From: Candidatus Adlerbacteria bacterium
GTDB taxonomy: Bacteria > Patescibacteriota > Minisyncoccia > Phycocordibacterales > SBAW01
Assembly: GCA_903851045.1 (NCBI GenBank)
Contig: CAINNF010000017.1
Span: forward strand, 34,353 to 98,352
Length of the DNA: 64,000 bases
Direction: 5' to 3'
Below are positions 4,490 to 28,400 of the stretch, piece by piece (position 1 is the first letter of the stretch; each line of letters begins with the position of its first letter). The notes beneath the pieces are model-generated. The model did not search any database and had not been told where the DNA came from. It saw only the letters and a list, made by a program, of their open reading frames with translations. The translations under genes and the position numbers were made by a program.

Positions 4490-5098
4490 ATGCGGACACG
4501 GGCACAGTGGGTCATTGGTGTCGACGAAGCGGGGCGCGGACCCCTGGCCGGACCAGTCGCGGTCGGTGTCGTGCTCGCGCCCAAAGGATTCGATATCAAA
4601 AAGGCATTCCCCGGTGTTGCTGACTCCAAGAAGCTTTCTGAGAAAAAACGAGAAGCGATCTTTTCGATGCTCGAACGGTGGTCGGATGACGATGTTAGAT
4701 ATGCGGTCGTGTTCGCATCTGCGAAGACGATAGACGGTAAGGGGATCAGCGCTGCTATTCGCGAGTCGGTGGCTCAAGGGGTGCGCATGCTCGCGCCGAA
4801 CGCACGCGACGGGTGTGTGCTGCTCGACGGGTCGTTGCATGCACCTGCAGCGTATACGCAACGAACGATCATCAAAGGTGACGCGACCGAACCGATCATC
4901 TCGCTCGCGTCAATCGCGGCGAAAGTGACTCGCGATCGACGTATGAAAAAGCTCGCTCAAAAATATCCAGTCTATGGGTTCGAGCGGCATAAAGGCTATG
5001 GCACAAAGGCGCACTATGCGGCGCTGCAGCAGCATGGGTTATCCCCAGAACACCGCACCACCTACCTTACAAACGTTTTGCCTCGCATACAGAAGTGA
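4490..5098 (+). CDS. rnhB: ribonuclease HII
   Basis: GVDEAGRGPLAGPV N-terminal motif and overall RNase HII length/organisation. Confidence 0.9.
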   Translation: MRTRAQWVIGVDEAGRGPLAGPVAVGVVLAPKGFDIKKAFPGVADSKKLSEKKREAIFSMLERWSDDDVRYAVVFASAKTIDGKGISAAIRESVAQGVRMLAPNARDGCVLLDGSLHAPAAYTQRTIIKGDATEPIISLASIAAKVTRDRRMKKLAQKYPVYGFERHKGYGTKAHYAALQQHGLSPEHRTTYLTNVLPRIQK

Positions 5099-5193
5099 AG
5101 TATAGTGAAATTTGCGTTCGGGGGTGTCGTACAAAACGTAAAAGCTCTATCAAAAAGAGCTCTCGATAACACCACAAGATAAGGGAGTCCGCC

Positions 5194-5457
5194 GTGCCGC
5201 GAGCATTGTCTGCACTAGAACAAATCGAGCATTTTGTCGATCAAGATCTACTCCTAGAAGTGCTGGGGGGTCGGGGGATCATGAGGGCCTGCGTCGCATG
5301 TGTGCACCGGGGTGATTGTGGATCGGAGACTGACCAGCTCGGTCTGTGCGAATTCTACGATCTGGACCTGCGAGATCCGATCAAGACAGAACAGAGTATC
5401 GAAGCGGCGCTCGTTGCCCCTCGGTGTCCTGAGCCTGTGTTGGCGGTCGCCGCCTGA
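5194..5457 (+). CDS. short DUF177/YceD-like protein (87 aa)
   Basis: GTG start at 5194 with AGGGAG RBS 6 nt upstream. Cys pattern CVACV...C...LC...PRC plus acidic D/E-rich segment loosely matches the C-terminal half of YceD, which normally precedes rpmF. A strong terminator follows. Confidence 0.4.
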   Translation: MPRALSALEQIEHFVDQDLLLEVLGGRGIMRACVACVHRGDCGSETDQLGLCEFYDLDLRDPIKTEQSIEAALVAPRCPEPVLAVAA

Positions 5458-5875: not shown

Positions 5876-6772
5876 ATGGCTAACAGGCACCTCTCACGGT
5901 CGATCGTCCTCCAAACACTCTTCGAGTGGGACTTTCGGAATTGTTCCCCTCAAGACACCGAGGAGGTACTGCTTCGCAACATCGAAGAGTTCGCACCCAA
6001 TGCATCCGACATCGCTTTCATGGAGGATCTGTTGAAGGGTACGGTCGCTCGAAAAGATGATCTTGATCTTGTCATAGAGAAGGCCGCTCCGGAGTGGCCC
6101 CTTTCGCGTATAGCGCCGGTCGACCGTAACGTGCTCCGGCTTGGGCTCTATGAGCTCCTGTTCGCCGATCGCGACAAGGTACCAGCGAAGGTTGCCATCA
6201 ACGAAGCTATCGAACTTGCGAAAAGTTTCGGTGGCGAGAACAGCGGCCGGTTCGTCAACGGTGTTCTTGGTGCGGTCTACAAAGAGCTCGGTGAACCCGG
6301 TAAGGACGAGACCTCGAAGAAGAAGAAAAGCGTGCCTTATGAAGAGATGCCACAGGAACGCCTCGTGGGAGCGGTGGTCTATTGTCGCAAGAGCGGGGAA
6401 CTGCAGCTCGCCCTTGTACACGACATCTTCGGACACTGGACGCTCTCGAAGGGGAAGCTCACTCCCGAAGAAACTCCCGAAGATGGAGTGGTGCGAAAGA
6501 TAAAAGAGGAGATAGGACTCGATGTGAAGCCGGTCGAGCGACTGGGCGAGAACGAGTATATCGCCTCCGACCCAGAGGTTGGCAAGAAGCGCAAGCACGT
6601 CATCTACTTCCTTGCCGAATCCGAACATACCCCGATCGAACTCGCGAAGAAAGGCGGACTCGATGATGCGAAATGGTTCCCCGTATCCCAAGCGACCGAA
6701 CTCAACTTCTATGACGACATGCTCCCGATAGTCACGAAAGCGATCCAGAAATTATTACCCGGTACCGACTAA
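5876..6772 (+). CDS. nusB: NusB (transcription antitermination) fused to a C-terminal NUDIX hydrolase domain
   Basis: Residues 1-140 match NusB (RSIVLQTLFEWDF, VLRLGLYELLF, VAINEAIELAKSFGGENSGRFVNGVLG). Residues ~160-298 carry a perfect Nudix box GKLTPEETPEDGVVRKIKEEIGL (Gx5Ex7REUxEExGU). Confidence 0.85.
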   Translation: MANRHLSRSIVLQTLFEWDFRNCSPQDTEEVLLRNIEEFAPNASDIAFMEDLLKGTVARKDDLDLVIEKAAPEWPLSRIAPVDRNVLRLGLYELLFADRDKVPAKVAINEAIELAKSFGGENSGRFVNGVLGAVYKELGEPGKDETSKKKKSVPYEEMPQERLVGAVVYCRKSGELQLALVHDIFGHWTLSKGKLTPEETPEDGVVRKIKEEIGLDVKPVERLGENEYIASDPEVGKKRKHVIYFLAESEHTPIELAKKGGLDDAKWFPVSQATELNFYDDMLPIVTKAIQKLLPGTD

Positions 6773-9068: not shown

Positions 9069-11339
9069 ATGCGACTGAAGTCGATAGAGTTGTCGGGATT
9101 TAAATCGTTCGCGCGCAAGACGGAATTGCAGTTTTCGTCGGCTATTACTTCGATCGTCGGACCCAACGGGTCGGGCAAGTCCAATATCGCGGAGTCCTTT
9201 CGGTTCGTGCTCGGTGAGCAGTCGATGAAGTCGATGCGCGGCAAGCGGGGCGAGGACATGATCTGGAATGGCTCCAACTCGACCCCACGCGGCTCGCGGG
9301 CGTCGGTCAAGCTCGTGTTCGACAATGCAGACCGAGCGTTGAACCTAGACTTCGACGAGGTTGCTATCGAGCGCGTAGTCTACCGCGACGGCGCGAACGA
9401 ATATCTGCTCAACGGCTCCCAGGTTCGGCTACGCGACATCAACGAACTGCTCGCACAAGCGAACATCGGCTCCTCTGGCCACCATATCATCTCGCAAGGT
9501 GAGGCGGATCGTGTGTTGTCGGCAACCGCTCGTGAGCGCCGCGAGATGATAGAGGACGCGCTCGGGCTCACGGCGTATCTATATAAACGAGAGGAGGCGG
9601 AACGTAAGCTCGTGAAGACGGCCGAGAACAGCGCCCAGGTCGAGGGGCTTCGTCGCGAGCTCGCACCGCATCTGAAGTTCTTGCAGTCACAGGTGCGCAA
9701 GATCGAGGAGTCGCAGAAGCTGCGCGACGATCTCGCGCTCAAATATGTGGAATATCTCAAACGCGAGAGCGTCTATCTTCATGTCACCCATGGACTCCTT
9801 ACCGCAGCATATGACGCACCCGAGCGCGAGCATACGGAGCTTAACCACAAGATCACCGAGCTTCGCATGGCGCTCGAGCGAAAGGGGAGTGACGCGGGAG
9901 CGTCCGAGTTGGTGCGGCTGGAGGAGGCGGGCAGGCGCGCGGCGCATAGGCGCGACATGCTGGGTCGTGAGCTCGGACGCATCGAAGGCGAGTTGGTCGC
10001 CGAAGAGCGGATCTTGAAGGTGGTCGAACGGGCGGTACCCGAAGCGCAAGCGCGCGAGTTCGCCAACCGTGTGGAGGCTGAGCTCGAAGAATCGATGCAG
10101 CTCTCGGAGGCAGAGATCAAACAGCGCATGGCCGCGCTCATTATTTTAGTAAAGGATTTCTTGCGTCGCATCACGCACGTCGAGCAGGTCCGCGAGGGTC
10201 GCTCGAAGGAAGAATTGCTGGAGCGCAAGCAGCAACTCGAACAGGAACTCCACACGACGGGGGAAGATGAGCGGCGCATAGCGGGGGCGGTCGCGCATCT
10301 GCGCATCAGCATCGAGAGCGAAAAGGACGCGTCGCGCGAAGCGGAGCGTGACCTGTTCGCGGCGATGGCACGCAGGAGCGAGCTGGAGACGAAGATCAAC
10401 AGTATCCGCTCGAAGGTAGAGATGCTCGAGCGCGAGACCGCGGCTTTTAGATCGGAGGTCGGCGAGGCGGGGGCGATACTGGGGCGCGCGGTCCAGTCGT
10501 ACGAGGACCACGTGGTGAGGAGCGCTTCGGGTGAGCTGGTGACGGACGCGGAGATGGTGGACGAGCCGCGCTCGCAGCAAGAAGATCGACGTAAAAAGAT
10601 CGAGCGGCTCAAGATCCGTCTCGAAGAGGCGGGCTTGGGTAATACGGCCGAGATCCTGCGCGAACACGAGGAGACCGTGGAGCGCGACCGATTCCTCGCG
10701 CGCGAGCTCCTCGACCTCGAGACGTCGGCCCAGTCGCTGCGCGAACTGATCGATGAGCTCACGAAGACGCTTTCGGCACGGTTTGCCGAAGGTATCACCA
10801 AGATAAATACCCAATTCGACGCGTTCTTTAAGCTGATGTTCGGTGGAGGAGACGCGGCGCTGTCGCTCGTTACCGAAGGGAAGGTACGGCCATACGCGGC
10901 GAAGCTTGCAGACGATGACCGCCCCAACGTCGCCCGCGGTGACGACGTGTCGGATGATGCAGAGTTAGATGCCGACGAAAAGGAAGAGGGGATAGAGATA
11001 ACGATTTCCCTGCCGCACAAGCGCATCAAAGGACTCCACATGCTTTCGGGCGGGGAGCGTGCGCTCACCTCGATAGCACTCATCTTCGCTATGTCACAGG
11101 TCAACCCGCCACCGTTCCTTATCCTCGACGAGACCGACGCCGCGCTCGACGAAGCCAACTCTCGCCGCTACGGCGACATGATCTCGACGCTGGGCAAGCG
11201 CTCGCAGCTCCTCCTCATCACCCACAACCGCGAAACCATGTCCCGAGCCGGCATCCTCTACGGCATCACCATGGGCTCCGACGGTGTCTCCAAGCTCCTC
11301 TCGGTCAAGTTCGAAGAGGCACTTGCGGTTGCTAAATAA
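9069..11339 (+). CDS. smc: SMC-family chromosome segregation ATPase, unusually short (756 aa) and apparently hinge-less
   Basis: N-terminal head IVGPNGSGKSNIAESFRFVLGEQS (Walker A). C-terminal LSGGERALTSIALIFAM signature plus LILDETDAALD Walker B. The middle ~400 aa is charged coiled-coil with no Gly-rich hinge motif. Confidence 0.8.
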   Translation: MRLKSIELSGFKSFARKTELQFSSAITSIVGPNGSGKSNIAESFRFVLGEQSMKSMRGKRGEDMIWNGSNSTPRGSRASVKLVFDNADRALNLDFDEVAIERVVYRDGANEYLLNGSQVRLRDINELLAQANIGSSGHHIISQGEADRVLSATARERREMIEDALGLTAYLYKREEAERKLVKTAENSAQVEGLRRELAPHLKFLQSQVRKIEESQKLRDDLALKYVEYLKRESVYLHVTHGLLTAAYDAPEREHTELNHKITELRMALERKGSDAGASELVRLEEAGRRAAHRRDMLGRELGRIEGELVAEERILKVVERAVPEAQAREFANRVEAELEESMQLSEAEIKQRMAALIILVKDFLRRITHVEQVREGRSKEELLERKQQLEQELHTTGEDERRIAGAVAHLRISIESEKDASREAERDLFAAMARRSELETKINSIRSKVEMLERETAAFRSEVGEAGAILGRAVQSYEDHVVRSASGELVTDAEMVDEPRSQQEDRRKKIERLKIRLEEAGLGNTAEILREHEETVERDRFLARELLDLETSAQSLRELIDELTKTLSARFAEGITKINTQFDAFFKLMFGGGDAALSLVTEGKVRPYAAKLADDDRPNVARGDDVSDDAELDADEKEEGIEITISLPHKRIKGLHMLSGGERALTSIALIFAMSQVNPPPFLILDETDAALDEANSRRYGDMISTLGKRSQLLLITHNRETMSRAGILYGITMGSDGVSKLLSVKFEEALAVAK

Positions 11340-11363: not shown

Positions 11364-11391
11364 TTGACAATATAACTAAGGTGTGTATAAT
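11364..11391 (+). promoter_or_regulatory. consensus sigma-70 promoter (TTGACA-16 nt-TATAAT)
   Basis: TTGACA at 11364-11369 and TATAAT at 11386-11391 with a 16-nt spacer, ~50 nt upstream of ATG 11444. Confidence 0.65.
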
Positions 11392-11443
11392 AGCAACTGG
11401 CTGTACTACATACATAACTAGAGAATACAGAGGGATAAACCCC

Positions 11444-12307
11444 ATGTCGGATGTTGTCTCAGTCTCCGCCCGAGAGGTGGAGATACAGCAGCAGTTCGGT
11501 GCACGTTTGCAACGAAGCCTGCTTTTCAGGCGTATCGTCGTCGGTGGTGCTGTGCTCATTTCGCTTGCACTCATTCTGCCGTTGGCGATCGCCGCCCTAC
11601 AGGCCGGCCTTGCGCTGCTCGCGCTTGCTGTCCTGTCCCTGCTCGCGCTGGGCTCCTGGAAGATGCTCCCCTGGTGGATCCTCTCCATCGAGAACCGGGT
11701 GCGGGAACGTATCCAAGTTGAGAAGAATCGCAGTCTCGCCGCCCTCAAGGCGGAGGCGCGAGCCAACCCGATCGAGCAGTTGCAGAACTATCTGCTCGGG
11801 GAGAAGCGAAAGCTGGATGGGTTCAAGCAGGCCCTCGCTCAGATCGGTGCGCAGGTCGAGACCATGTCCGACATGCTCCGGGAGCGGAAGAAGGCGAAGC
11901 CGAACTCGGACTACACCAACAAGGACCGGCATCTCGACTCGATGAGGCAGGTGTTCGCACAACTGCTCAAATCGGCGAAGGATGGTGACGAAGCGATTGC
12001 GGCACTGCGTGAGGCGATCGACGATAAGAAGTTCGACTGGCAGTTCGCGCAGGTCGGTCAGGCCGCTATGCAGCACTTCAAGGCTATGAACGGCCAAGAT
12101 CTGCTAAACGAGCTGCTTGCTGACGAGTCCTTCGCAGCAATTCGCGACAACTTCAACAGGGTGTTCGCGGATATCGAGGTCCAGATCGGAGGTATCAATT
12201 CCCAAAGAGCGTTGACCTTCGGCGAAGGCACTGACGCCTTCACTATCGACCTCTCGCAGATACGAGTTGGTACGCCGGAACTCGTTCCGGCTTCGGCAAC
12301 CAAGTGA
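11444..12307 (+). CDS. membrane-anchored coiled-coil protein (288 aa), function unknown
   Basis: ATG 11444 with GAGGG RBS. N-terminal TM hairpin (IVVGGAVLISLALILPLAIAALQAGLALLALAVLSLLALGSW) then a long charged helical region. The track start at 11381 is a longest-ORF artefact. Confidence 0.55.
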   Translation: MSDVVSVSAREVEIQQQFGARLQRSLLFRRIVVGGAVLISLALILPLAIAALQAGLALLALAVLSLLALGSWKMLPWWILSIENRVRERIQVEKNRSLAALKAEARANPIEQLQNYLLGEKRKLDGFKQALAQIGAQVETMSDMLRERKKAKPNSDYTNKDRHLDSMRQVFAQLLKSAKDGDEAIAALREAIDDKKFDWQFAQVGQAAMQHFKAMNGQDLLNELLADESFAAIRDNFNRVFADIEVQIGGINSQRALTFGEGTDAFTIDLSQIRVGTPELVPASATK

Positions 12308-12522: not shown

Positions 12523-13491
12523 ATGATTATGACACGTTTGCTCGCGTCGGCGCTCGTTTGGGCGTTCAGCGCGACACTGCCCGCGCTTGCGCAGCAGGCG
12601 CAGGCACCTGCGAAGATGCAGTTCATCGTCGCGGCAGCATCGTCGTCCGGTACCTACATGGAGATGCTCAAGCAGATCGGGGGGGTGTGCAACAGCGACG
12701 ACTTTACCATCGTTGAAGCTGATGTGAAGGGCGGTGCCACGGACAATCTGTCAGCACTGCTCGGCAACAAGGTCAGCGCGGCATTCCTGCATTCGGACGT
12801 GATCTACTTCTACGGCCAGACCGAACCGAAGTATCACGACTACAAGACCCTCGTCTCGCTCTACCCCGAAGACATCCACATCGTGGCGCTTCGGAATTCG
12901 GGTCTCAAGGCAGGTGGTTATGCGGGTACGGGCATCGGTGCCAAGCTTGTCGAGTTCACGACGATGACCGATCTCGCTGGCTACAAGGTCGGCGCGGCGG
13001 GTGGCGGCGTGATTACGGCGCGGATCCTTGCGGGCCAGGGCGATGGGCGCTTCGAAGTCGTCCAGTTTAACTCTGGTTCCGAGGTGCTTCCTGCGCTGGA
13101 GCGGGGCGAGATCCAGGCGGCAGTGTTTGTCGGCGGCGCGCCGCTGACGAATATCTCTGGGCTCTCGGCTGACAAGTTCAAGCTGCTTTCGATCAACGAG
13201 ACGGCCGCGAACAAGCTCTCCGGTGTCTACCGGCGTACGACAATCAACTATGTCAACCTGCGCAGTGACAACATCCCAACTCTTGCGCCCATGGCGGTGA
13301 TCGTGACGCGCAAGTATACAGTGGCGAAGTTCGTCGCGCCGCAGCGGCACTTCCGTGAGTGCTTCCTTGCAGGTCTGTCCGAGTTGCAGGAGACGCCGGG
13401 CAACCACCCCAAGTGGCAGTTGGTCGACTCCGCTGACCATGGGGTTTGGGAGTGGCTCGAGATTCCCGGTGCTGCTGCTCCGACGAAGTAG
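12523..13491 (+). CDS. TAXI-family (TRAP-associated) periplasmic solute-binding protein, orphan with no TRAP permease nearby
   Basis: Signal peptide plus blocks AAASSSGTYME, VKGGATDNLSALLGNKVSAAFLHSDVIYF, LVSLYPEDIHIVALRNSGLKA and DLAGYKVGAAGGGVITARIL, matching COG2358/TAXI conserved blocks. Confidence 0.7.
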   Translation: MIMTRLLASALVWAFSATLPALAQQAQAPAKMQFIVAAASSSGTYMEMLKQIGGVCNSDDFTIVEADVKGGATDNLSALLGNKVSAAFLHSDVIYFYGQTEPKYHDYKTLVSLYPEDIHIVALRNSGLKAGGYAGTGIGAKLVEFTTMTDLAGYKVGAAGGGVITARILAGQGDGRFEVVQFNSGSEVLPALERGEIQAAVFVGGAPLTNISGLSADKFKLLSINETAANKLSGVYRRTTINYVNLRSDNIPTLAPMAVIVTRKYTVAKFVAPQRHFRECFLAGLSELQETPGNHPKWQLVDSADHGVWEWLEIPGAAAPTK

Positions 13492-13506
13492 TATTTGTAC
13501 GAACCA

Positions 13507-13536
13507 CGGCCCACCCCTCAAAAGGTGGGCCGTTTT
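13507..13536 (+). terminator. rho-independent terminator
   Basis: cggcccacc / ggtgggccg stem followed by tttt. Confidence 0.65.
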
Positions 13537-13600: not shown

Positions 13601-13637
13601 GTCAATATATTGACATTTTATTAATATAAGTTAAGAT
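13601..13637 (+). promoter_or_regulatory. sigma-70-like promoter whose -35 overlaps a perfect 14-bp palindrome GTCAATATATTGAC (candidate operator)
   Basis: Palindrome at 13601-13614. TTGACA at 13610-13615, 16-nt spacer, TAAGAT at 13632-13637. Lies in the AT-rich gap between a terminator and the 13714 operon. Confidence 0.5.
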
Positions 13638-13713
13638 GCCCAACGGACTCGGAAAGGTACTTTGATAATGATCTCTTTCCAGTCGACTCCCACCCATTCT
13701 TCAGGAGGATCGC

Positions 13714-15474
13714 TTGAATACGCCACGACGTATGTTGTCGGCGCTCTGTGCGCTGTTGTTGCTCGTCGGTATGACACCGAACTCGTTCGGTGCTTCGACA
13801 TACACATCTTCGACTCGAGCCGCGCCGTCGCCCGCCGCTCCCAGTACTTGGGGTCGGTCGCCGCCACCGCAGGTTACCAACAGTAGTGGCTTTGGTCGCC
13901 CTACGGCACCATCTTCGTCCGGCACAGTGCCGAACGCAGTAACGCCCTCAAGAGCTGCGCTGCCACAGGCGACGTCCAGCAACGGTTTCGGACGGTCGAC
14001 CGCTTCGACCACGCCGCAACCCGCAACGCTTGGCAAGCCTCAGCCTGCCGTCACGGCTGGCAGACCGCCACCGACGCGTACGACGCTCGATCGGGCAGTC
14101 GTAGCCAGTCAGTCTGCCGCCGCACTCGCTGAGATGCGGGCAAAGCAAGCTTCGTTCAGGGCGCCGCCACCGCGGGTGGAGACACCTGCGGCGACCAATG
14201 TGTGGATTAACACCGTGCGTCCGGCGAGCACGCCGCGACCTTCTGTCTCGGTGTACTACGTTGAGCGCAACCACTACTACGAGAACACCGGTTGGCATCC
14301 GTTGGCCTACATGGCGCTCGGTGCCGCTGCTTATGGTGTCTACGACTCCATGTTCGTCTGGCACAACATGGACACACACCCCGAATGGTTCTACCACCAT
14401 TATGACGACCCGGCGTATCGCGCCTGGCGCAGTGATGCGGACAGGATTGCTCAGTCTCCGGACAATGCCGATCTGCGTGCCAAGCTTGCGAAGCTGGACC
14501 AGGACGTCGCCGATCTGAAGGCGAAGAATGTTCCGGTTAATACGACCTACTTGCCGTCCGACATCAAACCTGACGTCGCGCTTGCGGCCGAGGTGGTGAC
14601 GGGTGTCACGGCGCCGGACCTTTCGTTCGCGAGCGGTCCAGACGGGACCACCTACAACTCGCTATGCGCGAGTGACGGCGGGTTTAAAGACTCCGCCAAT
14701 GACACGATGAACGTGACGTGCGTATCGACCGACGGTGCCTGGGACAACGTGATCGGTTATCTCGCCCACAAATACTCGGCCATCTTCGCGACGACCGACG
14801 TCATCGATGCCGCACTGCGCGCCAGGTCGACCAGCGGTGGGAAGACCACGCTTGGCCGGCAACAACTGAGCGCCTACAACGAACTGATGTTCCTGTTGGT
14901 GAACAAGGATTCACCAATCTGGAGCGTCACCGACCTGAAGCCTGGGCGAGACGTGCTCTATGTCGGGCCTTCGGGTTCCGGCACAGAGATCTCCTACCAG
15001 AACTTGGCGCATCACGCGACCACGAGTTCGTGGGGCGTCTTCTCGAACCACAACGCGCAGTACGAGGGCGTGGTCACAAAGAACGAATCCTACGACGAAG
15101 CGGTCCGCGAGGTCTCGACGAATCCGAACGCGGTGCTCCTCGTCATGATGCCCGGACATTCCAATTATGTGTCCGGTATCGAGACAAAATATGGTGATCG
15201 CGTACGACTTGTGCCGATGAATGGCGACGCGAGCTTCACCAACGTGCGTGACCAAGACGGCAATGACGTCTACCACGAGTGCGAACTCGCGAGTGGCTTG
15301 TATCCCAAGCTGCTCGGCGCGAAGACCGTCGAAACGCTCTGCGTACAGGCGGTGGTCGCAGTGTCGGACGACTGGGTGCGCAAGAGTCCAAACGGTGAGG
15401 ACCTGTTCCTCACTGCATGGGCGTACATGCTTCCCAAACTGCAGGGCATTAACGCGGGAGTCGAGCAACAATGA
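13714..15474 (+). CDS. secreted protein: signal peptide, ~170-aa Pro/Ser/Thr-rich linker, then a TAXI-like binding domain
   Basis: TTG start 13714 with AGGAGG 5 nt upstream. MNTPRRMLSALCALLLLVGMTPNSFGAST signal peptide. C-terminal blocks LMFLLVNKDSPIWSVTDLKPGRDVLYVGPSGSGTEISYQNL and LYPKLLGAKTVETLCVQAVVAVSDDW parallel TAXI conserved blocks. Stop overlaps the next ATG (ATGA). Confidence 0.65.
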   Translation: MNTPRRMLSALCALLLLVGMTPNSFGASTYTSSTRAAPSPAAPSTWGRSPPPQVTNSSGFGRPTAPSSSGTVPNAVTPSRAALPQATSSNGFGRSTASTTPQPATLGKPQPAVTAGRPPPTRTTLDRAVVASQSAAALAEMRAKQASFRAPPPRVETPAATNVWINTVRPASTPRPSVSVYYVERNHYYENTGWHPLAYMALGAAAYGVYDSMFVWHNMDTHPEWFYHHYDDPAYRAWRSDADRIAQSPDNADLRAKLAKLDQDVADLKAKNVPVNTTYLPSDIKPDVALAAEVVTGVTAPDLSFASGPDGTTYNSLCASDGGFKDSANDTMNVTCVSTDGAWDNVIGYLAHKYSAIFATTDVIDAALRARSTSGGKTTLGRQQLSAYNELMFLLVNKDSPIWSVTDLKPGRDVLYVGPSGSGTEISYQNLAHHATTSSWGVFSNHNAQYEGVVTKNESYDEAVREVSTNPNAVLLVMMPGHSNYVSGIETKYGDRVRLVPMNGDASFTNVRDQDGNDVYHECELASGLYPKLLGAKTVETLCVQAVVAVSDDWVRKSPNGEDLFLTAWAYMLPKLQGINAGVEQQ

Positions 15475-16334
15475 GCGGTTTCTACAGAGCGTACGCGCAG
15501 CTTCTCGCCGCGCGTACGACGGCGAAGGTGTCGGCACTGATGCGGGGATCCCGCACGGACCGCGACCTTCCGCTGAAGCTTCGGATTGGCGGGTCGATTC
15601 TCTTCAATGACCCGACGAAATCCATTCTCGCCGCAGGTGCTGGACACCTCGTCCGGTTCCCTGCGTCGGGAGTGGCCAAGATCGTCGCCTGGGGGAGCAT
15701 GCGCTACCTCGGGCGGCACACGATCAATCGCTTCTACCTCGACACCGGCGACGCGGCGGATGATCTCATCCTCCAAGTCGTCGTGGGTTCCGACGGACTC
15801 GTCTACAATGACGAGATCCGCCTTCTGCGGCTCGTGCGTGAGATCACGCCGTCGTCCGCGGACGAGTGGACTATCTGGCTCCCCGGCGCCAAAGGCTTCC
15901 GCGAACAACAACTGCGCGAGCTCGGATGGACCAAGGTGCAGATCCAGGCGCAGCTCGACCAAGAGTACCCGGATGGCCAGGATCGCTATCTCATCGGGCA
16001 GAGCGTCTTCGATGTTCCCGATGAGCATAATCCCTCGGCGCCCCTGACGCGGTACTACCGCATCTGGCCGAAGGAGGGTGCCGAGTTCGTCGAACCTATC
16101 GAATTCGACGAGTCACTTCACACCGACCCCTGGGCCCAGCCGATCAGCGTTACACATCGCGCGATGCTGTACGGCCGGACTCTGACTGCGCCGCAAGGCT
16201 CCGAAGGGATTACCTTTCCCGACGAGTGGATGTGGCTGCAGGCAAGTGAGGTTGGGGACGAGGCGAGAGTGCAGCTACTGGCTGGTCTCTCGCTCGCGAC
16301 GACGGACTTCGCGGTCGTGCCACCCAGCGCCTAG
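15471..16334 (+). CDS. hypothetical cytoplasmic protein (287 aa), translationally coupled to the upstream secreted protein
   Basis: ATGA start/stop overlap at 15471-15474. No signal peptide. Possibly related to PspA-associated DUF families (YjfK/DUF2491-like), but I cannot confirm this from memory. Confidence 0.55.
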   Translation: MSGFYRAYAQLLAARTTAKVSALMRGSRTDRDLPLKLRIGGSILFNDPTKSILAAGAGHLVRFPASGVAKIVAWGSMRYLGRHTINRFYLDTGDAADDLILQVVVGSDGLVYNDEIRLLRLVREITPSSADEWTIWLPGAKGFREQQLRELGWTKVQIQAQLDQEYPDGQDRYLIGQSVFDVPDEHNPSAPLTRYYRIWPKEGAEFVEPIEFDESLHTDPWAQPISVTHRAMLYGRTLTAPQGSEGITFPDEWMWLQASEVGDEARVQLLAGLSLATTDFAVVPPSA

Positions 16335-16430
16335 CGCTGGTTGACGCGTTCTCTAGGTCCTGTTACTTTGTCTATACGCTGCGCCTCAGAGCGGTTACAG
16401 CTGAGGTTTCTTTTCAGGAAGAAACACCAC

Positions 16431-17207
16431 ATGGCTTTCGCGTTCATCAAGAACCTCGCTGGCCTCAAGGCGAGCGGAGTCGTTCAGGCCGGTGTCGAAG
16501 CGTATGTACGGTGGGACCCCAAAGGTTCAACCGCAGCCGAGCTTTTGACCATGGAGCAGCACCTGGACGTGTTGAACCAGCAGGTTTCCGAAGCACGGCA
16601 AGCCTTCAATAAGGAGAGGCAGGAGGCGGTCGCAATCGTGGCGCTGCACAACCAGCGCCTGGCGGCGGCCGAATTGCTGCAGAAGCAGATAGATGCGGCG
16701 ACCGACCCGGCGGTGAAAGCCGAGCTTGAAAAGAGTCTGGGCACACAGCTCACTTTGATCGAGCGGATGGCCCCGGATGTCGAGCGCGAGCAGGCTGAGG
16801 CAGCCGACGCCAAGGATGTGCTTGAGACGCTCGATGCCTCCTTCCAGGAGGCTGGACAGAAGCTGCTCGAGGGTCGTGCGCAGCTCGAGCAGGCAGAGCG
16901 TGACATGAAGCGTGCCGTGACACAGCGCGAATCGGCTGAGCGGCAGGCAGAAGCCGCTCGCCGAGCAGCCGGTCTGACGCAAGTCACCAGCGGACTGACG
17001 GTGGCTTTGAAAGCGATGCAGGACGCGGCGGCTAAGGATCTCGTGTCGGCGGATGCCGCGGCAAACAAGGCAAAGCTGTTGCGGCAGACCAAGCCTGAGC
17101 AGGACGACCCGCATATCGCGGCCGCGATGGCTGCGGTGTCCGGAAAGCCGGTGGCGGCCACGTCGCTGGCGGGGCGCCTCGCTGCGTTGAAGGAGAGGGC
17201 GGCCTGA
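16431..17207 (+). CDS. PspA/IM30 (phage-shock protein A / Vipp1 / ESCRT-III-like) family protein
   Basis: ATG 16431 with AGGAAG RBS. N-terminal amphipathic MAFAFIKNLAGLKA, a WDPKG...ELLTMEQHLDVLNQQVSEAR block paralleling PspA EDPQK...LMIQEMEDTLVEVR, then ~200 aa of Ala/Glu/Gln/Arg coiled-coil. 258 aa. Confidence 0.55.
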   Translation: MAFAFIKNLAGLKASGVVQAGVEAYVRWDPKGSTAAELLTMEQHLDVLNQQVSEARQAFNKERQEAVAIVALHNQRLAAAELLQKQIDAATDPAVKAELEKSLGTQLTLIERMAPDVEREQAEAADAKDVLETLDASFQEAGQKLLEGRAQLEQAERDMKRAVTQRESAERQAEAARRAAGLTQVTSGLTVALKAMQDAAAKDLVSADAAANKAKLLRQTKPEQDDPHIAAAMAAVSGKPVAATSLAGRLAALKERAA

Positions 17208-17367
17208 CGGTCTCCTGATCGTGACTAGCTAGTTCTTTTTACAGGGGTTCGTATCTACTGGGCGTGCAGCATCCGTGCTGCACGCCTTTTCTATATCCAG
17301 AAGCACACATTGACATTTTCTACAGAAACTGTATGGTACTGTTGCCTGCAATCGCAAAGGATATCAA

Positions 17368-17650
17368 AATGCGTAAGATGACGTTGGGTCAGATCGTCGT
17401 GTGTGCCATGGTGGCACTGCTCATCCTTGTCCCGTTCTGGTACCCATTGTTGGTGGGAGTGTGGTGGTTGATTGTCCTCGCATGGTCGCTGGCCTGGGGG
17501 TTAGTGAAGATCGTTTTTGCCGTCCTGTTTTGGCTCCTGCTACAGGTCGTCAGCTCCATGATCAGCGCTGTGGCTGTAGTGCTGGTCATTGGCGGGGTGG
17601 CGTGCTTTGCCTACTATAAGTTGCGTGCTGCGCCGACGCGCGCGCAGTAG
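17368..17650 (+). CDS. small polytopic membrane protein (94 aa), likely PspA partner
   Basis: ATG 17368 with AAGGA RBS. Three or four Trp/Leu-rich TM helices. Followed by a strong terminator. Confidence 0.5.
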
Positions 17651-17660
17651 CGTTTCTATC

Positions 17661-17696
17661 GGCCCGCCCTTACAAAGGCGGGCCGACTTCTTTTTG
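17661..17696 (+). terminator. rho-independent terminator
   Basis: ggcccgcc / ggcgggcc stem followed by gacttctttttgt. Confidence 0.7.
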
Positions 17697-18356: not shown

Positions 18357-20408
18357 CTAGGCTAGTTCGAAATCCAGCGTGCGAGCCGAGAGGTCGGCAG
18401 CGACCAACTTGACTCGCACCCTGTCTCCAAGCGTAAATCGCTTCTTCGTACGCTCTCCCACGAGAGCGTATTTTTTTTGGTCATGAGTGAAGAAGTCGCT
18501 CCCGAGCGAACGGACGCGCACCAAGCCCTCAGCCGAACTTTCTTCATCTTCGACATAGATACCCCAGTCGGTGACGCCCGAGATGATGCAGTCGAACTCA
18601 CGGCCTACTTTATCGAGCATATACTCGACCTGTTTGTAGCGGATGGAGTCGCGCTCGGCCTCGACCGCCTTGGCCTCTTGTGCACTGGCGTTGAGGCACA
18701 TGCGCTCCAGGCCGCCGAACTCGCGGCTGGTGAGCGGGTGACCGTCGAGGTGCGATGCGACGATGCGGTGCACGAGCAGGTCGGGGTAGCGGCGGATAGG
18801 GGAGGTGAAGTGGGTGTAATACTCGAACGCAAGCCCGAAGTGACCGATGTTCTTGGTCGAGTAGATCGCCTTCGCCATGGAGCGAAGGGTGGCGGTGCGG
18901 ATAAGATGCTCCTCGGGCTTACCCTCGATCTGCTTGAGCAAGCTCGCAATATCTCGAGCAGATATTTTTTTCTTTGGTGTGTGGGTCGCTCCGGAGTGGG
19001 ATGCGTCCCGCGGAGCTTTAGCGGAGTGGGAGAAGTCGTATCCGAGCGCACGGACGAACGTGCCGAGGTCGTCGATACGGTCTGCCTTGGGTTCGTCGTG
19101 GATGCGGTAGAGGAAGATGGGCGCCTCTTGTGCTTGGTTGGAAAGTTTTGAAATATATTTCGCGACCTCACGGTTGGCGAGCAACATGAACTCCTCGATA
19201 AGCGAGTTGGTCTCGATGCGCTCCTTGCGCACCACTTTGAGAGGCTTGCCCTCCTCGTCGAGCACGAAGCGGACCTCATTGTCGCCGAAGTCTATCGCGC
19301 CCTCTCGCTCGCGACCTTTCTTGAGGATGCGCGCGATGGTGCGCAGATGGTTGAGCTCGGTGAGGTATGGGCCATCCTGCTTGTCGAGGATCTCCTGCGC
19401 CTCTTCATAGACGAAGCGCTTGTTGGAGCGGATGATAGTACGCTCGAACTTTCGCTCCAGTACTTGGCCGGAGGAGGTGATATGAAAGATGGCTGAGAAG
19501 GCGAGTCGGTCCTCGTCCTGTTTGAGACTACAGACGTTGCCCGAGAGCTCGTGGGGGAGCATCGGGATGGTCGCGTCGACAAGATAGACGGAGGTGCCGC
19601 GCTTCACCGCCTCGTCGTCCAGCCGTGTGCCGGGGCGCACGAAGAAGCTCACGTCGGCTATGTGGATACCGATCTCGAAGATGTGGCCGCCAAGGTCGCG
19701 GATAGAGAGTGCATCGTCGTAGTCTTTGGCGTCCGCCGGGTCGATAGTGAAGGTGGTTCGGTCGCGGAAGTCACTTCGGTTCTTTGCCTCGCTTTCGATC
19801 GTGTGGGCATAGTTTCGCTCGATCTCCTTCGCCTCGCGTGCGACATCGTCGGGGAAGGAGGTCGCGAAGCCGTGCTCGAGCACGATGGCGTTCATCTCGG
19901 TACGATGGTCGCCGGCGGTGCCGATGATCTGTGTCACCGAGCCAGTCGGGTCAGCCTTGCCGTCGAACGCCTCTAACTTCACGAGCACCTTCATCCCGAC
20001 CTGCGCGTCGTCGGGGACCGAGAGGAGTTTGAAGGTGCGATACATGCGGGCATCGTCAGGAGTGGCGCTCCACACCGCGCCCTGTTTTTTGAGCACACAG
20101 ACGAACTCGCTGCGTGAGCGCTCCTCGACCTTCTTGACGACCCCTTTGGGGCGGGGGAAGAGACCGGTCAACTCGACCGACACGATGTCGCGGTTAAGCG
20201 CACCACCAAGATGCTCCGGCGCGACCTCTATATCTTGCAAAGCCGAGACGCCCTCCTTCGCCGAGGCTTCGAAGGGCAAGTACCCCACGCCTTTTCGCGT
20301 GACCGATATACTGCCTGTTACGAGCTTTTTCTGCGCCGGATTTCCCTGGTGCCGAGAAGCTCCTGTGCTGGGGCCGCGGCCCTTACCTGGAGTCATTGAT
20401 ACAGACAC
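18357..20408 (-). CDS. rnr: ribonuclease R (RNase II family 3-prime to 5-prime exoribonuclease)
   Basis: RNB-domain signatures HFGLAFEYYTHFTSPIRRYPDL and YLVDATIPMLPHELS. Cold-shock and S1-like flanks. 683 aa. Confidence 0.9.
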   Translation of the reverse strand: MSVSMTPGKGRGPSTGASRHQGNPAQKKLVTGSISVTRKGVGYLPFEASAKEGVSALQDIEVAPEHLGGALNRDIVSVELTGLFPRPKGVVKKVEERSRSEFVCVLKKQGAVWSATPDDARMYRTFKLLSVPDDAQVGMKVLVKLEAFDGKADPTGSVTQIIGTAGDHRTEMNAIVLEHGFATSFPDDVAREAKEIERNYAHTIESEAKNRSDFRDRTTFTIDPADAKDYDDALSIRDLGGHIFEIGIHIADVSFFVRPGTRLDDEAVKRGTSVYLVDATIPMLPHELSGNVCSLKQDEDRLAFSAIFHITSSGQVLERKFERTIIRSNKRFVYEEAQEILDKQDGPYLTELNHLRTIARILKKGREREGAIDFGDNEVRFVLDEEGKPLKVVRKERIETNSLIEEFMLLANREVAKYISKLSNQAQEAPIFLYRIHDEPKADRIDDLGTFVRALGYDFSHSAKAPRDASHSGATHTPKKKISARDIASLLKQIEGKPEEHLIRTATLRSMAKAIYSTKNIGHFGLAFEYYTHFTSPIRRYPDLLVHRIVASHLDGHPLTSREFGGLERMCLNASAQEAKAVEAERDSIRYKQVEYMLDKVGREFDCIISGVTDWGIYVEDEESSAEGLVRVRSLGSDFFTHDQKKYALVGERTKKRFTLGDRVRVKLVAADLSARTLDFELA

Positions 20409-22458: not shown

Positions 22459-25400
22459 ATGCGAGAGAAAAAGTATTTCAGCCGGTTCCGTGCGCCGCGT
22501 GTCGAGACGCCGAATCTCGTCGAGGCACAGGTCGAGTCCTATAAGGAGCTTCTGAAGGGTGGCGTGAAGGATATCTTCAAGGAGTTCACTCCTATCAAGG
22601 ACTACTCCGGCAAGAAGTTCGACCTTGAGTTCGTGAAGATCGAGCTCGGTGAGCCGAAATTCGACGAGCACTACGCCAAGGAGCAGAAGATGACGTTGGA
22701 TATGCCGCTACGCGGTATCGTTCGGTTGCGCAACAAGACCACCGGCTCCGAGAAGGAGCAGGAGATCTTCCTTGCGGACTTCCCCGTGATGACCGACCAC
22801 GGTACCTTCATCATCAACGGTGTCGAGCGTGTCATCGTCCCCCAGCTGGCACGCTCCTACGGTGTCTTCTTTACCGCCGAAGAGGTGAAGGGTAAGCGTC
22901 ACTTCGGCGCGAAGCTTATCCCGGCCCGCGGCGCATGGATCGAACTCGAAGCTGAGTCTGACGGCGGTCTCGCTGTCCGTATCGACCGTAAGCGAAAGTT
23001 CCCCGCGCTCTCCCTCCTGCGCGTGTTTGGTGCGACCTCCGACGAAGATCTCAAGAAGCTCTTTGCCGACTCCGAGCACGGACTTCGCTGGATCGAAGAC
23101 GCGCTTTCCAAGGATGTGACCAAGTCCGTCGATGATGCGTACGTCGAGATCCACAAGCGTTTGCGTGATGGTGACTTGGCGACCGTTGCGAACGCTCGCG
23201 AATACATCAACTCCATCTTTAGTGAGGACCGCTACGACCTTTCCCGCGTCGGGCGCTTCCGCTTCAACCAACGCTTCGACCTCTCGCTCGAAGAGGCTGA
23301 CCTCGCACGCAAGACACTCTCGCTCGCTGACCTTGTCATCGTCTTCAAGCACATCCTTGAGCTCGAGAACGACCCTGATGCGGTCGAGGACAATATCGAC
23401 CACCTCGGCTCGCGCCGCGTCCGCTACGTCGGCGAGATGCTCCAGCAGCGCCTTCGTGTCGGCCTCACCCACATGAAGCGCAACATCCAGGACCGCATGT
23501 CGACGATCGACACCGATGCGTCCATGCCACAGCAGTTCGTTAACCCGCGACCACTGCAGGCCCGTATCAAAGAATTTTTTACCACCAACCAGCTCTCCCA
23601 GTTCATGCAGCAGGAGAACGCGCTCACCGAGCTCGAACACCTGCGAACGCTCTCGGCACTGGGTCCCGGAGGTCTCACGCGCGAGCGCGCGGGCTTCGAG
23701 GTTCGCGACGTCCACCCATCCCACTACGGACGCCTCTGCCCGATCCACACCCCTGAAGGCCCGAACATCGGCCTTATTCTGCGTCTCTCGACGTTCGCCC
23801 GCGTCAACGCGTTCGGCATGATCGAGACGCCGTACGTCAAGGTTGAGAATGGTCATATCACGAAAGAGATCGTCTATCTCAACGCTGCAGAAGAAGAGAA
23901 GCGTTCTATCGCACACGGTGCGGTCAAGGTCGTCAACGAGAAGTTCGTCGATGAGTTCGTCGATGCGCGTCTCAACAGCGTCCCGACACGCGTCGCCGCG
24001 AAGGATGTCGAACTGATGGATGTGACGCCGGAGCAACCGTTCTCGGTCGCAACCTCAATGATTCCGTTCCTTGAGCACGACGACGCGAACCGTTCGCTCA
24101 TGGGTTCGAACATGCAGAAGCAGGCGACCCCGTGCATCCTTCCTGAGGCGCCGCTCGTCGGCACCGGTATGGAGGAGCGTGCTGCAAAGGACACTGGCCG
24201 CCTCATCATCGCGAAAGAGGATGGTATGGTGGTCCAAGCAGACGGCAAGCACATCATCGTTCGCAACCAGAAGGGGAAGGACACCGAATATCCGCTCATC
24301 AACTTCGTCCGTACCAACGGCTTTACCGCGCTCCATCAGCGACCAAGTATCTCGGTCGGCACCGCGGTCAAGAAGGGTGACCTGCTCGGCGACACCTCGT
24401 CGACCGACGGCGGCCAGCTCGCACTCGGGCAGAACTGCCTCGTCGCCTTTATGTGTTGGTCGGGTGCGAACTACGAAGACGCCATCATCATCTCTGAGCG
24501 CATGGTCAAGGACAGCAAGTTCTCCTCTATCCACATCGAGGAGTTCGTCTGTAACGTGCGCGACACCAAGCTTGGCGCCGAAGAGACCACTCACGATATC
24601 CCGAACGTCTCCGAGACGAAGCTCCGCAACCTCGACGAGGACGGCGTGGTTCGTGTCGGTTCCGAAGTGCGCCCAGGCGACATCCTGGTCGGCAAGATCA
24701 CACCGAAAGGCGAGACACAGCTCACTCCTGAGGAGCGACTCCTTCGTTCGATCTTCGGTGACAAGGCGCGCGATGTGAAGGACTCGTCCCTTCGCATGGA
24801 GAATGGCAAGCGCGGTCGCATCATCGGCGTCAAAGTCTTCTCCCGCGAAGCGGGCCACCAGCTCGAAAGCGGCATCATCAAGCGCATCCACATCGAGGTC
24901 GCGCAGCTGCGCAAGGTCTCGGTCGGCGACAAGCTCGCAGGTCGTCACGGCAACAAGGGCGTTATTTCCCGCATCCTGCCCGAAGAGGATATGCCATACA
25001 CCGCGGACGGTCGTCCGGTCGACGTCATCCTGACACCGCTGGGCGTGCCGTCTCGTATGAACCTCGGACAAATTTTGGAGCTGCACCTCGGACTCGCTGC
25101 GAACACCCTTAACTACCAAGCTATCTGTCCGCCGTTCGCGGGAGCGACCGAAGTCGAGATCCGCGAGGAGTTGAAGAAGGCCGGCTTTAACGAAAGCGGC
25201 AAGATGCAGCTCTTCGACGGTCGTACCGGCGAGGCGTTCGAGCAGGACATCTCGGTCGGCTACATGTACATCTTGAAACTCCACCACATGGTCGAGGACA
25301 AGATCCACATGCGCTCGATCGGACCGTACTCTCTTATCACCCAGCAGCCACTGGGCGGTAAGGCACAAGGCGGCGGTCAGCGCTTCGGCGAAATGGAGGT

Positions 25401-28400
25401 GTGGGCACTGCTCGGCTACGGCGCGTCATATACGCTGCGCGAGATGCTCACGATCAAGTCCGACGACATCAGTGGTCGGTCCGCAGCCTTCGACTCTATC
25501 GTGCGCGGTGAGCGCATCAACCACCACTACGCGCCGGCATCCTTTAACGTGCTCCTCCACACCCTGCGCGGTCTCGCGCTCGACGTCGAGCTGATGCGCG
25601 GCGGCAGTGCGGTCACCAACGCGCGCAAGACGCCGGGTGCCGAGGCCTCCGACTTCGACTCGGTGCGCATCCGACCAGCATCCCCTGAACGCATCTTGGA
25701 ATGGTCGCACGGCGAGGTCACCAAGCCTGAAACCATCAACTACCGCACCCAACGTCCAGAGAAGAACTCGCTCTTCGACGAGAAGATCTTCGGTCCTGAG
25801 CGCGACTATGAATGTTACTGCGGTAAGTATCGCGGCATTCGCTACAAGGGTATCGTCTGCGAGAAGTGCGGTGTCGAGATCACTCGCTCAATAGTCCGTC
25901 GCGAGCGCATGGGTCACGTCGACCTGGCGGTCCCGGTCGCACACGTATGGTTCCTTCGCGCTATTCCGTCGCGTCTCGCCATGGTGCTCGGCATCTCTGG
26001 GGGCGATCTCGAGAAGGTCGTCTACTTCGCGGGCTACATCGTCAACCAGGTTCACCGTGAGGAAAAGGAGCGCATCATCGGCGAACTCGAAGCTGAGTAC
26101 AAGTCGAAGATGAAGAATCTCCAGGACGAGAAGTCGAAGGACAAGATGAAGGACCTCTTCCTCGATGCCAAGCGCGACATCGACTCTATCGTCATCGGTG
26201 CGGTACTCGACGAGCCACGCTACCACCGCTATGTCATCAAGTACGGCGCGATGTTCGAGGCCGGTATCGGTGCCGAAGCGCTCTACAACCTGTGCAAGAA
26301 CCTCGATGTGAAGCAGATGATCGCCGACACGGTCACGGCGCTCGAAAAGGCCGGTGCCGCAGAGCGCGAGAAGCTCGGCAAGCGACTCTCGATCCTGCGC
26401 GGTATGGCGAAGTCCAACATTCGCCCCGAGTGGATGTTCCTGACCCGCATCCCGATCATCCCGCCAGGCCTGCGACCGATGGTCGCGCTCGACGGCGGCC
26501 GTCATGCGACCTCCGACATCAACGACCTCTACCGACGCGTCATCAACCGCAACAATCGTCTCAAGAAGCTCATCGAGATCCATGCGCCGGACGTCATCCT
26601 CCGCAACGAGAAGCGCATTCTGCAGGAAGCGGTCGACACGCTCATCGACAACTCTATCCGCCATGGCGGCGCGGCGTTCTCTGCGACGACCCAGGCGCGC
26701 ACACGACCGCTCAAGTCGCTCTCCGACAACCTCAAAGGTAAGCACGGTCTCTTCCGTCAGAACCTGCTGGGTAAGCGCGTCGACTACTCGGGTCGCTCTG
26801 TCATCGTCGTCGGTCCAGAACTTCGGCTCAACCAGTGCGGTCTGCCGAAGCACATGGCACTGGAACTCTTCCGTCCGTTCGTCATCGGCAAGCTCCTCGA
26901 GAAGGAACTCGCCTATAACATCCGCGGCGCGGGTCGTCTTATCGACGAAGGCGTACCGGAGGTATGGGCGATCCTCGAAGATGTCATCCGCGACAAGTAC
27001 GTGCTGCTTAACCGCGCACCGACCCTCCACCGCTTGGGTATTCAGGCCTTCCAGCCGATCCTTATCGAAGGGAACGCTATCCAGCTGCACCCGCTCGTCT
27101 GTTCGGCGTTCAATGCGGACTTCGACGGCGACCAGATGGCCGTCCATGTGCCGCTCTCACCTGAGGCGCAGGCGGAGGCTCGCGAGATCATGTCCGCGAC
27201 CAAGAACATCCTCAAGCCGGGTAACGGCGAGCCGGTCATCGCATCCAAACTGCTCGACATTCTGCTCGGTACGTATTGGATGACCAAGGAAGTGAAGGGC
27301 GCAAAGGGCGAGGGTCTCGCATTCTCGAGTCCGAACGCCGCCATTCTCGCGTACGACCACGGTCGCGTCGGCTTCCAGGCGAAGATCCGTGTGATGCCGA
27401 GTGAGAAAGAGAAGTATGCCGCGTTCGGCAATCAGCTCTTCGAGACGACCGCAGGCCGACTCCTCTTCAACACCGTCTTCCCGAACGACTACCCATTCGT
27501 CAATACTGCGATCGACAAGAAGGGTCTCGCGAAACTCGTCGACAACCTTATCGACCGTTATGGACTCGAGAAGATCCCGGATACCATGGACAAGATCAAG
27601 AACTTCGGTTTCCGTTACGTCACCCAGTCCGGTATCACCTGGTCGCTCGACGACATACGTGTCCCGGCCGAGAAGGATGGCATCATCATCGAAGCACAGC
27701 GCAAGTCGCACGAAGTCGTCGAACACTGGGAGCAAGGCTTGCTCTCCGAGGAAGAGCGCTATCGCATGAACATCGAGATCTGGCACGACGCGAAGTCACA
27801 GGTCGAGAAGTGCATCCCAGCGACGCTCCCGATCGACGGTTCGGTCTCCGACATGATCAAGTCAGGCGCCCGCGGCTCTATCGGACAAGTGACGCAGATG
27901 GCCGGCATGAAGGGTCTCATCTCATCACCATCGGGTGATACGATCGAACTCCCGGTGACGAAGTCCATGAAGGAAGGTCTCTCGCCACTTGAGTACTTCC
28001 TCACGACGCACGGTTCGCGCTCGGGCCTCGCCTCAACGGCGCTCTCGACCGCGAAGGCCGGGTACCTCACGCGCCGACTCTTTGACGTCGCACAAGACAT
28101 CGTGGTCTCCAGCGACGAATGCGGCACGAAAGAGGGTCTCACGATCCACCGTGTCTCCGCATCCGGCATCGGTACCTTCCTTGCGAAGAACATCGAAGGT
28201 CGCTACTTGGCAGAGGATGTCATGCACGACGGTAAGCTCATCTATAAGAAGGGGCAATTCCTGCTCGGACCGGACGCTCGTCATATCGAAGAGCTCGGTG
28301 TGCAGTCGGTATACGTTCGCTCTCCTGTAGGTTGTAAGTCACACCGCGGCATCTGCGGGCACTGTTATGGTGCGGACCTCTCGACCGGCAAGCCTGTCGC

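Follow-up and report, generated by a model that had tools for sequence, protein, structure and literature searches.

To patch and reshape the cytoplasmic membrane, bacteria are mainly known to use systems of the Psp and ESCRT-III type, and, to our knowledge, the sensing of damage or of the state of the envelope is poorly understood outside Escherichia coli. In the E. coli operon yjfIJKLMC, the DUF2491 protein YjfK and the DUF350 protein YjfL come after the PspA paralogue YjfJ, and this YjfJ-DUF2491-DUF350 linkage was described as a 'third group' by Ravi et al. 2024 (PMC11237479), who predicted DUF2491 to be enzymatic, noted a ligand-sensing K+ channel in YjfJ/DUF2491 operons and reported that DUF4247/DUF2617 or band-7-SHOCT proteins stand in for the PspA dyad in some variants. 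It was also found that yjfIJKL form one co-regulated unit, upregulated in heat-evolved E. coli strains, and YjfK was modelled as a small beta-barrel (PMC12492005). Here, we analysed a 64-kb stretch of contig CAINNF010000017.1 from a Candidatus Adlerbacteria bacterium (hereafter, the window), in which three consecutive genes encode a secreted protein with a helical module (called Nmod) and a TAXI-type binding domain (gene 1), a DUF2491 protein (gene 2), and an all-helical hairpin protein whose family, called CC, is unannotated (gene 3). We propose, with a probability of about 0.55 for the reading as a whole, that these genes form a three-gene unit (type B) which would be a rare rearranged form of a widespread alphaproteobacterial cassette (type A), and that the CC protein acts at the membrane as a relative or analogue of PspA. 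In the literature searched, 'DUF2491' led to a single study (a preprint and its published version), and the type A cassette is without description.

The scan of species-representative genomes for the CC gene gave 80 loci, 78 of them informative, mostly from Rhodospirillales, Acetobacteraceae (Roseomonas, Craurococcus), Azospirillum, Skermanella and related metagenome-assembled genomes. The gene order DUF2491 (420-700 residues), DUF350, CC was found in 77 of the 78 informative loci (type A; the exception is locus L021). The long type A protein combines a signal peptide, a Gly/Ser/Pro-rich low-complexity region, the helical Nmod, one transmembrane helix and DUF2491, with Nmod outside and DUF2491 inside; the DUF350 product is a four-helix membrane protein, and CC has about 256 residues. 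The type B arrangement, in which the gene after the TAXI fusion encodes a short DUF2491 protein, was found in all four relatives examined, each with different flanking genes, and the CC gene is also present in three of them (L094, L095 and L096), while the contig of the fourth (L097) ends before the CC position. The transmembrane helix that separates Nmod from DUF2491 in type A is found in none of the type B proteins. When compared to the long type A protein of locus L007, Nmod of gene 1 (residues 195-266) matches the extracytoplasmic part (residues 140-213; BLASTP E value 3e-9), and gene 2 matches the cytoplasmic C-terminal domain (residues 269-464; E value 9e-10). Therefore, genes 1 and 2 correspond to the two halves of the long type A protein, with the TAXI domain replacing the membrane helix. 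The two cassette types are homologous, with defined gene structures and domain identities, and their linkage is conserved; in particular, the trio of genes 1-3 is kept even though the flanking genes differ. The co-occurrence of DUF2491 with DUF350 that characterizes yjfJKL-type operons holds for the CC family overall, and the window has DUF2491 alone. CC occupies the position that PspA has in the E. coli operon, and the cassette is a variant of the DUF2491/DUF350-centred Psp-associated neighbourhoods.

Gene 2 was described in the first-pass annotation as encoding a cytoplasmic 287-residue protein coupled to gene 1, with DUF2491 as a family to be searched for, and both points were borne out. 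Indeed, PF10679 (DUF2491) matches the protein with 41.6 bits, the gathering score being 25 (E value 1e-10, with the C-terminal part of the model covered), neither a signal peptide nor a transmembrane helix nor any other hydrophobic segment was found in it, and the ATGA overlap, which can be read directly in the sequence, indicates that gene 2 is translationally coupled to gene 1. For gene 1, the earlier description as a secreted protein with a long Pro/Ser/Thr linker and a TAXI-type domain agrees with the predicted signal peptide, with the disorder in the AlphaFold2 model and with the Foldseek search of the domain against the PDB, in which the best seven matches are exclusively TAXI-TRAP binding proteins (E values 4e-12 to 2e-9), among them VcGluP (9ibo/8s4j), the Thermus GluBP (1us4/8u79), the Ehrlichia 4ddd protein and VCA0144. 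Other families of binding proteins appear in that search from ~3e-7, i.e., three to five orders of magnitude behind TAXI. In the model, the C-terminal domain thus has the TAXI fold, with sequence scores that remain under the curated cut-offs for TIGR02122 (E value 1.7e-10, 40.2 bits, cut-off 84.35) and for PF16868 (NMT1_3; E value 4e-5, 23.8 bits, cut-off 27); a precomputed PF16868 match is recorded for all 18 of 18 gene 1 homologues. The fusion of Nmod to TAXI is rare (18 clusters among 5.8 billion proteins). Note that public gene calls give gene 1 a start that leads to 446 residues; the 586-residue reading is better supported because conserved columns lie upstream of the 446-residue start and because there are long homologues with signal peptides, which share the signal peptide, the linker and Nmod. 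As the first-pass annotation had pointed out, the pairing of a solute-binding module with a Psp-type protein is not a described Psp architecture: no TAXI/Psp pairing is described in Ravi et al. 2024 (PMC11237479), where 'TRAP' has 0 occurrences ('TAXI' was not searched for).

Our proposal can be put as a sequence of steps. In the window lineage, the long type A gene would have been split in two: the outside half would have lost its membrane helix and gained a TAXI domain, giving the secreted product of gene 1, and the inside half would have become the separate soluble DUF2491 protein of gene 2, while the DUF350 gene would have been lost and the CC gene kept as gene 3. The CC protein would be the membrane-acting component, most likely related to PspA/Vipp1/ESCRT-III at a great evolutionary distance or else analogous to them in function, and may assemble at the membrane from the cytoplasmic side by means of its N-terminal helix and helical hairpin. 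DUF2491 would be the cytoplasmic partner or regulator of CC, as presumed for YjfK toward YjfJ, and the Nmod/TAXI protein could supply an envelope-side or small-molecule input, possibly a carboxylate or an amino acid. Membrane remodelling by CC, its interaction with DUF2491, signalling by TAXI and the class of the ligand are what we infer from the domains and their linkage; the ligand-sensing input to membrane repair, already suggested by the first reading of this DNA, is offered as a hypothesis. The bolder version, in which CC would be an unrecognised branch of PspA/ESCRT-III that makes with Nmod, DUF2491 and DUF350 a self-contained envelope-sensing membrane-repair system, and in which the window would couple an outside small-molecule cue via TAXI to remodelling inside, appears rather unlikely to us.

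The possible resemblance of CC to PspA is indirect and comes, besides the shared partners DUF2491 and DUF350, from its predicted architecture and from profile comparisons. CC is a large family, with at least 1122 homologues of gene 3 at E values of 1e-3 or less (the nearest being 60-65% identical and about 256 residues long, and carrying a Pfam domain in no case) and 575 clusters at 50% identity in an exhaustive profile search, and it has neither a Pfam nor an NCBIfam model. In the AlphaFold2 model of gene 3 (predicted local distance difference test, pLDDT, 76), a short N-terminal helix (15-27) is followed by a helix at 35-89, a turn, a helix at 93-183 and three further helices, and the helices 35-89 and 93-183 form a long hairpin. 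A near-invariant Asp-Pro lies at positions 29-30, and the C-terminal motif 'S-L-x-D-R-L-A-A-L-K' resembles 'V-E-D-E-L-A-A-L-K-A' of Vipp1. When the CC alignment was compared by hhalign with a three-sequence template (PspA, YjfJ and Vipp1), the local mode gave a weak match (63.6% probability, E value 6.7e-5, score 40.3) in which the first 63 CC columns are in register with PspA from residue 1, and the global mode gave 90% probability over 215 columns (score 40.1); reversed templates scored 16 (local) and 4 (global), with probabilities of at most 0.2%. Note that reversed templates were used instead of a circular-shift null, which is invalid for local hhalign since the match follows the shifted N-terminal segment, and that a homologue search seeded with PspA, YjfJ and Vipp1 returned almost solely enterobacterial PspA, from which the template gained nothing. 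Two family members carry additional parts, P0289 an N-terminal transmembrane extension of ~50 residues and P0255 a C-terminal extra domain of ~80 residues; the former fits a membrane-proximal role for the family. From these data, the CC protein is a candidate very divergent PspA/ESCRT-III-like protein, and we regard remote homology of the family to PspA/ESCRT-III as plausible and somewhat favoured, but not established.

Several results weigh against our proposal. The CC family fails each direct sequence test for PspA: PF04012 (PspA_IM30) has no match to the gene 3 protein at E values up to 0.1 and is not among the 25 most-matched families listed for gene 3 and 52 diverse relatives at E values up to 1 (53 members in all), a scan in which the gene 3 protein itself again had no PF04012 match, and profile searches of the PDB sequences with the family found no PspA, Vipp1 or LiaH, generic coiled coils alone being returned. 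With a larger but redundant 16-sequence PspA template, the local hhalign probability drops to 10% (comparisons with E. coli PspA or YjfJ as single sequences, at no more than 2%, were uninformative). The N-terminal helix of gene 3 is weakly amphipathic, with a hydrophobic moment of 0.33 vs 0.49 in PspA. As to the surroundings, a canonical PspA, a YjfI-like chaperone and a polyamine gene are absent from the window and the related loci (phmmer searches with YjfI, YjfM and YjfC gave no match in 97 loci or the window), DUF1190 and the polyamine ligase occur in none of the related loci, and no DUF350 gene exists throughout the 64-kb window. Finally, since nothing spans the membrane in type B, it is not evident how TAXI could act on the cytoplasmic proteins, and coupling in the window variant may need a membrane partner encoded elsewhere. 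The first-pass annotation had labelled the product of gene 3 as PspA/IM30-like, and had named failure against the PspA/IM30 profile as a reason to drop the label; the profile is not matched, so that at this level the label is withdrawn, and the protein is not a member of PF04012 as the family is now defined.

These negative results also serve the explanation that best survives beside ours, according to which CC is unrelated to PspA/ESCRT-III and is a lineage-specific coiled-coil scaffold or regulator of the DUF2491/DUF350 module, the activity residing in DUF2491 and the likeness to Psp systems reduced to shared partners. Besides the missing PF04012 and PDB sequence matches, a search of NCBIfam with the gene 3 protein found nothing, generic hairpins dominate the structure searches, and the published replacements of PspA within DUF2491/DUF350 operons (PMC11237479) tell us that this position is exchangeable. 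Nevertheless, at its N-terminus CC aligns in register with PspA, well above the reversed controls, and the order and lengths of the CC helices mirror those of PspA, so we consider an unrelated CC possible but on balance unlikely. Other identities proposed by database labels did not stand: SMC, JetC, DndD, occludin and GpsB, which came up in the Pfam, NCBIfam, PADLOC, PHROGs and PDB sequence searches, are coiled-coil noise, the JGI label 'chromosome segregation ATPase' for the CC protein is the same artefact, and an anti-phage defence system was set aside, there being no PADLOC match.

It could also be thought that gene 1 mainly serves transport, i.e., that its TAXI domain hands a solute over to a TRAP-TAXI permease from another locus, with DUF2491 and CC as unrelated fellow travellers. 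The best fold matches of the domain are indeed glutamate-binding TAXI proteins, and a second TAXI-like protein is encoded directly upstream, as the first reading had reported and as its NMT1_3 score above the cut-off confirms. This orphan gene is absent beside the cassette in L094-L097, and a recent duplication giving the two TAXI-like proteins was rejected since BLASTP between them yields only 7e-4, a distant relationship. Against the transport explanation, no TRAP permease was matched or recognised among the window open reading frames of at least 250 residues (ten large ones scanned against Pfam, the others judged by earlier gene calls or length), and no TRAP membrane (QM) component was seen in the neighbourhoods of the four type B relatives. 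In addition, the fusion partner of TAXI is Nmod, a module that shares its polypeptide with DUF2491 in type A, and the translational coupling and the linkage to DUF2491 and CC are kept across differing flanks. A purely transport-related gene 1 is, in our opinion, quite improbable.

With regard to transcription, the open reading frames of the first-pass annotation were all recovered on the forward strand where it had placed them (Table 1), and its terminator-bracketed four-gene unit was retained in its outer hairpins and given up in its unity. The hairpin at the end of the orphan TAXI gene folds with -22.2 kcal/mol (z = -2.6 for fold energy against shuffles). The hairpin that begins 53 nt past the stop of gene 3 is the strongest of the region (-23.7 kcal/mol, z = -6.4; 0 of 200 shuffles fold equally well), and it is followed by a further promoter-like site. 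The stretch 13610-17287 is thus predicted to be a single transcription unit of three genes. The small membrane gene further downstream exists (93 rather than 94 residues), and it lies outside this unit because a terminator and its own promoter-like site precede it, it has no DUF350 match and it has no counterpart 3' of the cassette in the relatives; its membership in the cassette was therefore dropped. With either possible start, the protein matched in Pfam neither DUF350 (PF03994), as the earlier annotation had proposed to check, nor any other family. That a four-gene operon ends in this protein as an equivalent of DUF350/YjfL, as its strand, its close proximity and the presence of a DUF350 membrane protein in type A cassettes might suggest, is highly improbable given the strong terminator and separate promoter-like site before the gene, the lack of a DUF350 match where true DUF350 proteins (those of the relatives and E. 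coli YjfL, as positive controls in the same scan) reach E values of 1e-30 to 1e-34, the lack of a homologue 3' of the cassette in L094-L096, and the location of the type A DUF350 gene between DUF2491 and CC rather than after CC.

The promoter-like site of the unit is overlapped by the palindrome GTCAATATATTGAC, which has no second exact copy in the 64-kb window. Since nine perfect 14-bp palindromes occur in the window, this one among them, it is by itself statistically unremarkable; the regions 5' of the cassette in relatives contain inverted repeats that differ from it, and we regard it as a putative operator, nothing beyond that. The 96-nt spacer that precedes gene 3 was also considered as the site of an attenuator or promoter; this was rejected, as the spacer is no more structured than shuffled sequences (z = -0.8).

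Table 1. Coordinates of the cassette, its signals and the adjacent genes in the window (residue numbers for the parts of gene 1)
Feature	Position	Strand	Basis or remark
Orphan TAXI-like gene, 322 aa, not conserved with the cassette	12523-13491	+	NMT1_3 43.5 bits (cut-off 27); TIGR02122 E = 7.6e-17
Intrinsic-terminator-like hairpin closing the orphan TAXI gene and delimiting the unit on its 5' side	13506-13533	+	10-bp stem, 8 G-C pairs, T-tract
Perfect 14-bp palindrome, candidate operator	13601-13614		Overlaps the -35 hexamer
Promoter-like site, sigma-70 type, TTGACA-16-TAAGAT	13610-13637	+	10/12 consensus positions; 76 nt 5' of the gene 1 TTG start
Gene 1, 586 aa, TTG start	13714-15474	+	AGGAGG 7 nt before the start
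Gene 1, predicted signal peptide	aa 1-26	+	Sole hydrophobic segment, N-terminal
Gene 1, disordered Pro/Ser/Thr/Gly-rich linker	aa 27-179	+	AlphaFold2 disorder over residues 1-179
Gene 1, helical module Nmod	aa 180-270 (14251-14523)	+	AlphaFold2, pLDDT 56-88
Gene 1, TAXI-type binding domain	aa 300-586 (14611-15471)	+	AlphaFold2 alpha/beta domain, high pLDDT
Gene 2, 287 aa, DUF2491	15471-16334	+	ATGA overlap with gene 1 at 15471-15474; GGGAG 10 nt upstream
Gene 3, 258 aa, all-helical hairpin protein, CC family	16431-17207	+	AlphaFold2
Strong intrinsic-terminator-like hairpin, likely 3' end of the three-gene unit	17260-17287	+	12-bp stem, 8 G-C pairs, T-tract after
Promoter-like site TTGACA-16-TATGGT	17310-17337	+	Between the preceding hairpin and the small membrane gene
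Small polytopic membrane protein gene, 93 aa, outside the cassette	17369-17650	+	Separate unit 17310-17686, own promoter-like site and terminator
Terminator-like hairpin after the small membrane gene	17659-17686	+	End of the separate small unit

As to the history of the cassette, the genes of the window do not tell the same story. The TAXI fusion is 50-56% identical and the DUF2491 protein 35-44% identical to the counterparts in L094 and L095; the window CC is only 25-27% identical to the CC of these loci, but 62-64% identical to the CC of alphaproteobacterial type A. This discord points to replacement of the CC gene or, alternatively, to highly unequal rates of change. The G+C content at third codon positions (GC3) of the cassette genes, 0.72-0.77, agrees with that of housekeeping genes, and a recent horizontal transfer of the cassette was rejected on this basis; any transfer would likewise not be recent since GC3 is uniform. 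In the most distant type B relative (L096), a GluR0-like ligand-gated K+ channel gene (4317-5435; SBP_bac_3, Lig_chan and Ion_trans_2) was observed after the CC gene.

Other features of the window were recorded. RNase R is encoded near the cassette (18357-20408, opposite strand) and also near yjfIJKLMC in E. coli K-12 (L012), probably by coincidence. Upstream, a NusB-NUDIX fusion protein of 298 residues (5876-6772, +) precedes an SMC homologue of 756 residues (9069-11339, +), a typical SMC having ~1180. A perfect consensus promoter, TTGACA-16-TATAAT (12/12; 11364-11391), lies before the gene of a 287/308-residue protein (region 11364-12307, +) in which transmembrane helices at the N-terminus are combined with a long helical C-terminal part; the protein has no family match and is unlinked to the cassette in relatives. 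Downstream, one open reading frame of 2280 residues (22459-29301, +) contains the RpoB and RpoC domain sets, i.e., a fused RNA polymerase beta/beta' of which near-identical versions (2254-2288 residues) occur on other contigs. Three open reading frames of 1072, 1311 and 509 residues (32737-35955, 37919-41854 and 42749-44278, +) have as sole family match a C-terminal dockerin-like repeat in the 1311-residue protein, and the region 47934-54585 (-) encodes a fused NuoC/NuoD-like protein (523 residues) with two Mrp/NuoL-type antiporter-like subunits (480 and 679 residues), a cluster reminiscent of group-4 hydrogenases or of an Mrp-type complex. Neither a tRNA gene nor an Rfam family at its gathering score was found in the 64-kb window.

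Altogether, these results draw attention to a compact cassette of Rhodospirillales, Acetobacteraceae and Azospirillum whose helical component is unrecognised by current domain databases. The two cassette types represent a natural 'domain-swap experiment', in which Nmod has two alternative connections, one across the membrane to DUF2491 and the other by fusion to a TAXI domain, and they offer handles on the roles of DUF2491 and DUF350, namely culturable type A hosts, a soluble TAXI domain for ligand screens and a 258-residue protein for electron microscopy. If CC turned out not to be PspA-like, the cassette would be a further example of the DUF2491/DUF350 module taking interchangeable partners.

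Compared with the yjfIJKLMC-type operons, whose members are the CesT/Tir-like YjfI (DUF2170), the PspA paralogue YjfJ, YjfK, YjfL, the DUF1190 protein YjfM and the ATP-grasp protein YjfC, the cassette shares the association of DUF2491 (in type A also of DUF350) with an all-helical hairpin protein of ~230-260 residues in a compact same-strand arrangement. It differs in that its helical protein has no PF04012 match, in that no YjfI-like chaperone, DUF1190 protein or polyamine ligase accompanies it, and in the state of DUF2491, which in type A is joined through a transmembrane helix to the extracytoplasmic Nmod and in the window is a separate protein next to a secreted Nmod-TAXI protein; the window is also without DUF350. 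With PspA, Vipp1 (IM30) and LiaH, CC would, as predicted, have in common the N-terminal helix, the conserved Asp-Pro, the long alpha1-alpha2 hairpin, three more helices and an 'L-A-A-L-K'-like C-terminal motif, and there is the weak in-register profile similarity at its N-terminus; in contrast to these proteins, it has no significant sequence-profile match, is ~35 residues longer and has in the window a less amphipathic N-terminal helix. The C-terminal 287 residues of gene 1 share the TAXI fold with the binding proteins of TAXI-TRAP systems, whereas a disordered linker of ~150 residues and the helical Nmod of ~90 residues stand in front, the sequence scores are sub-threshold, and the gene is linked to DUF2491 and CC with no TRAP permease nearby. 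A further comparison is that with the type A cassette of Alphaproteobacteria: in the window the first gene is split, a TAXI domain is found where type A has its transmembrane helix, and DUF350 is missing, whereas Nmod, DUF2491 and CC are homologous in both, the CC of the window being 60-65% identical to its type A counterparts.

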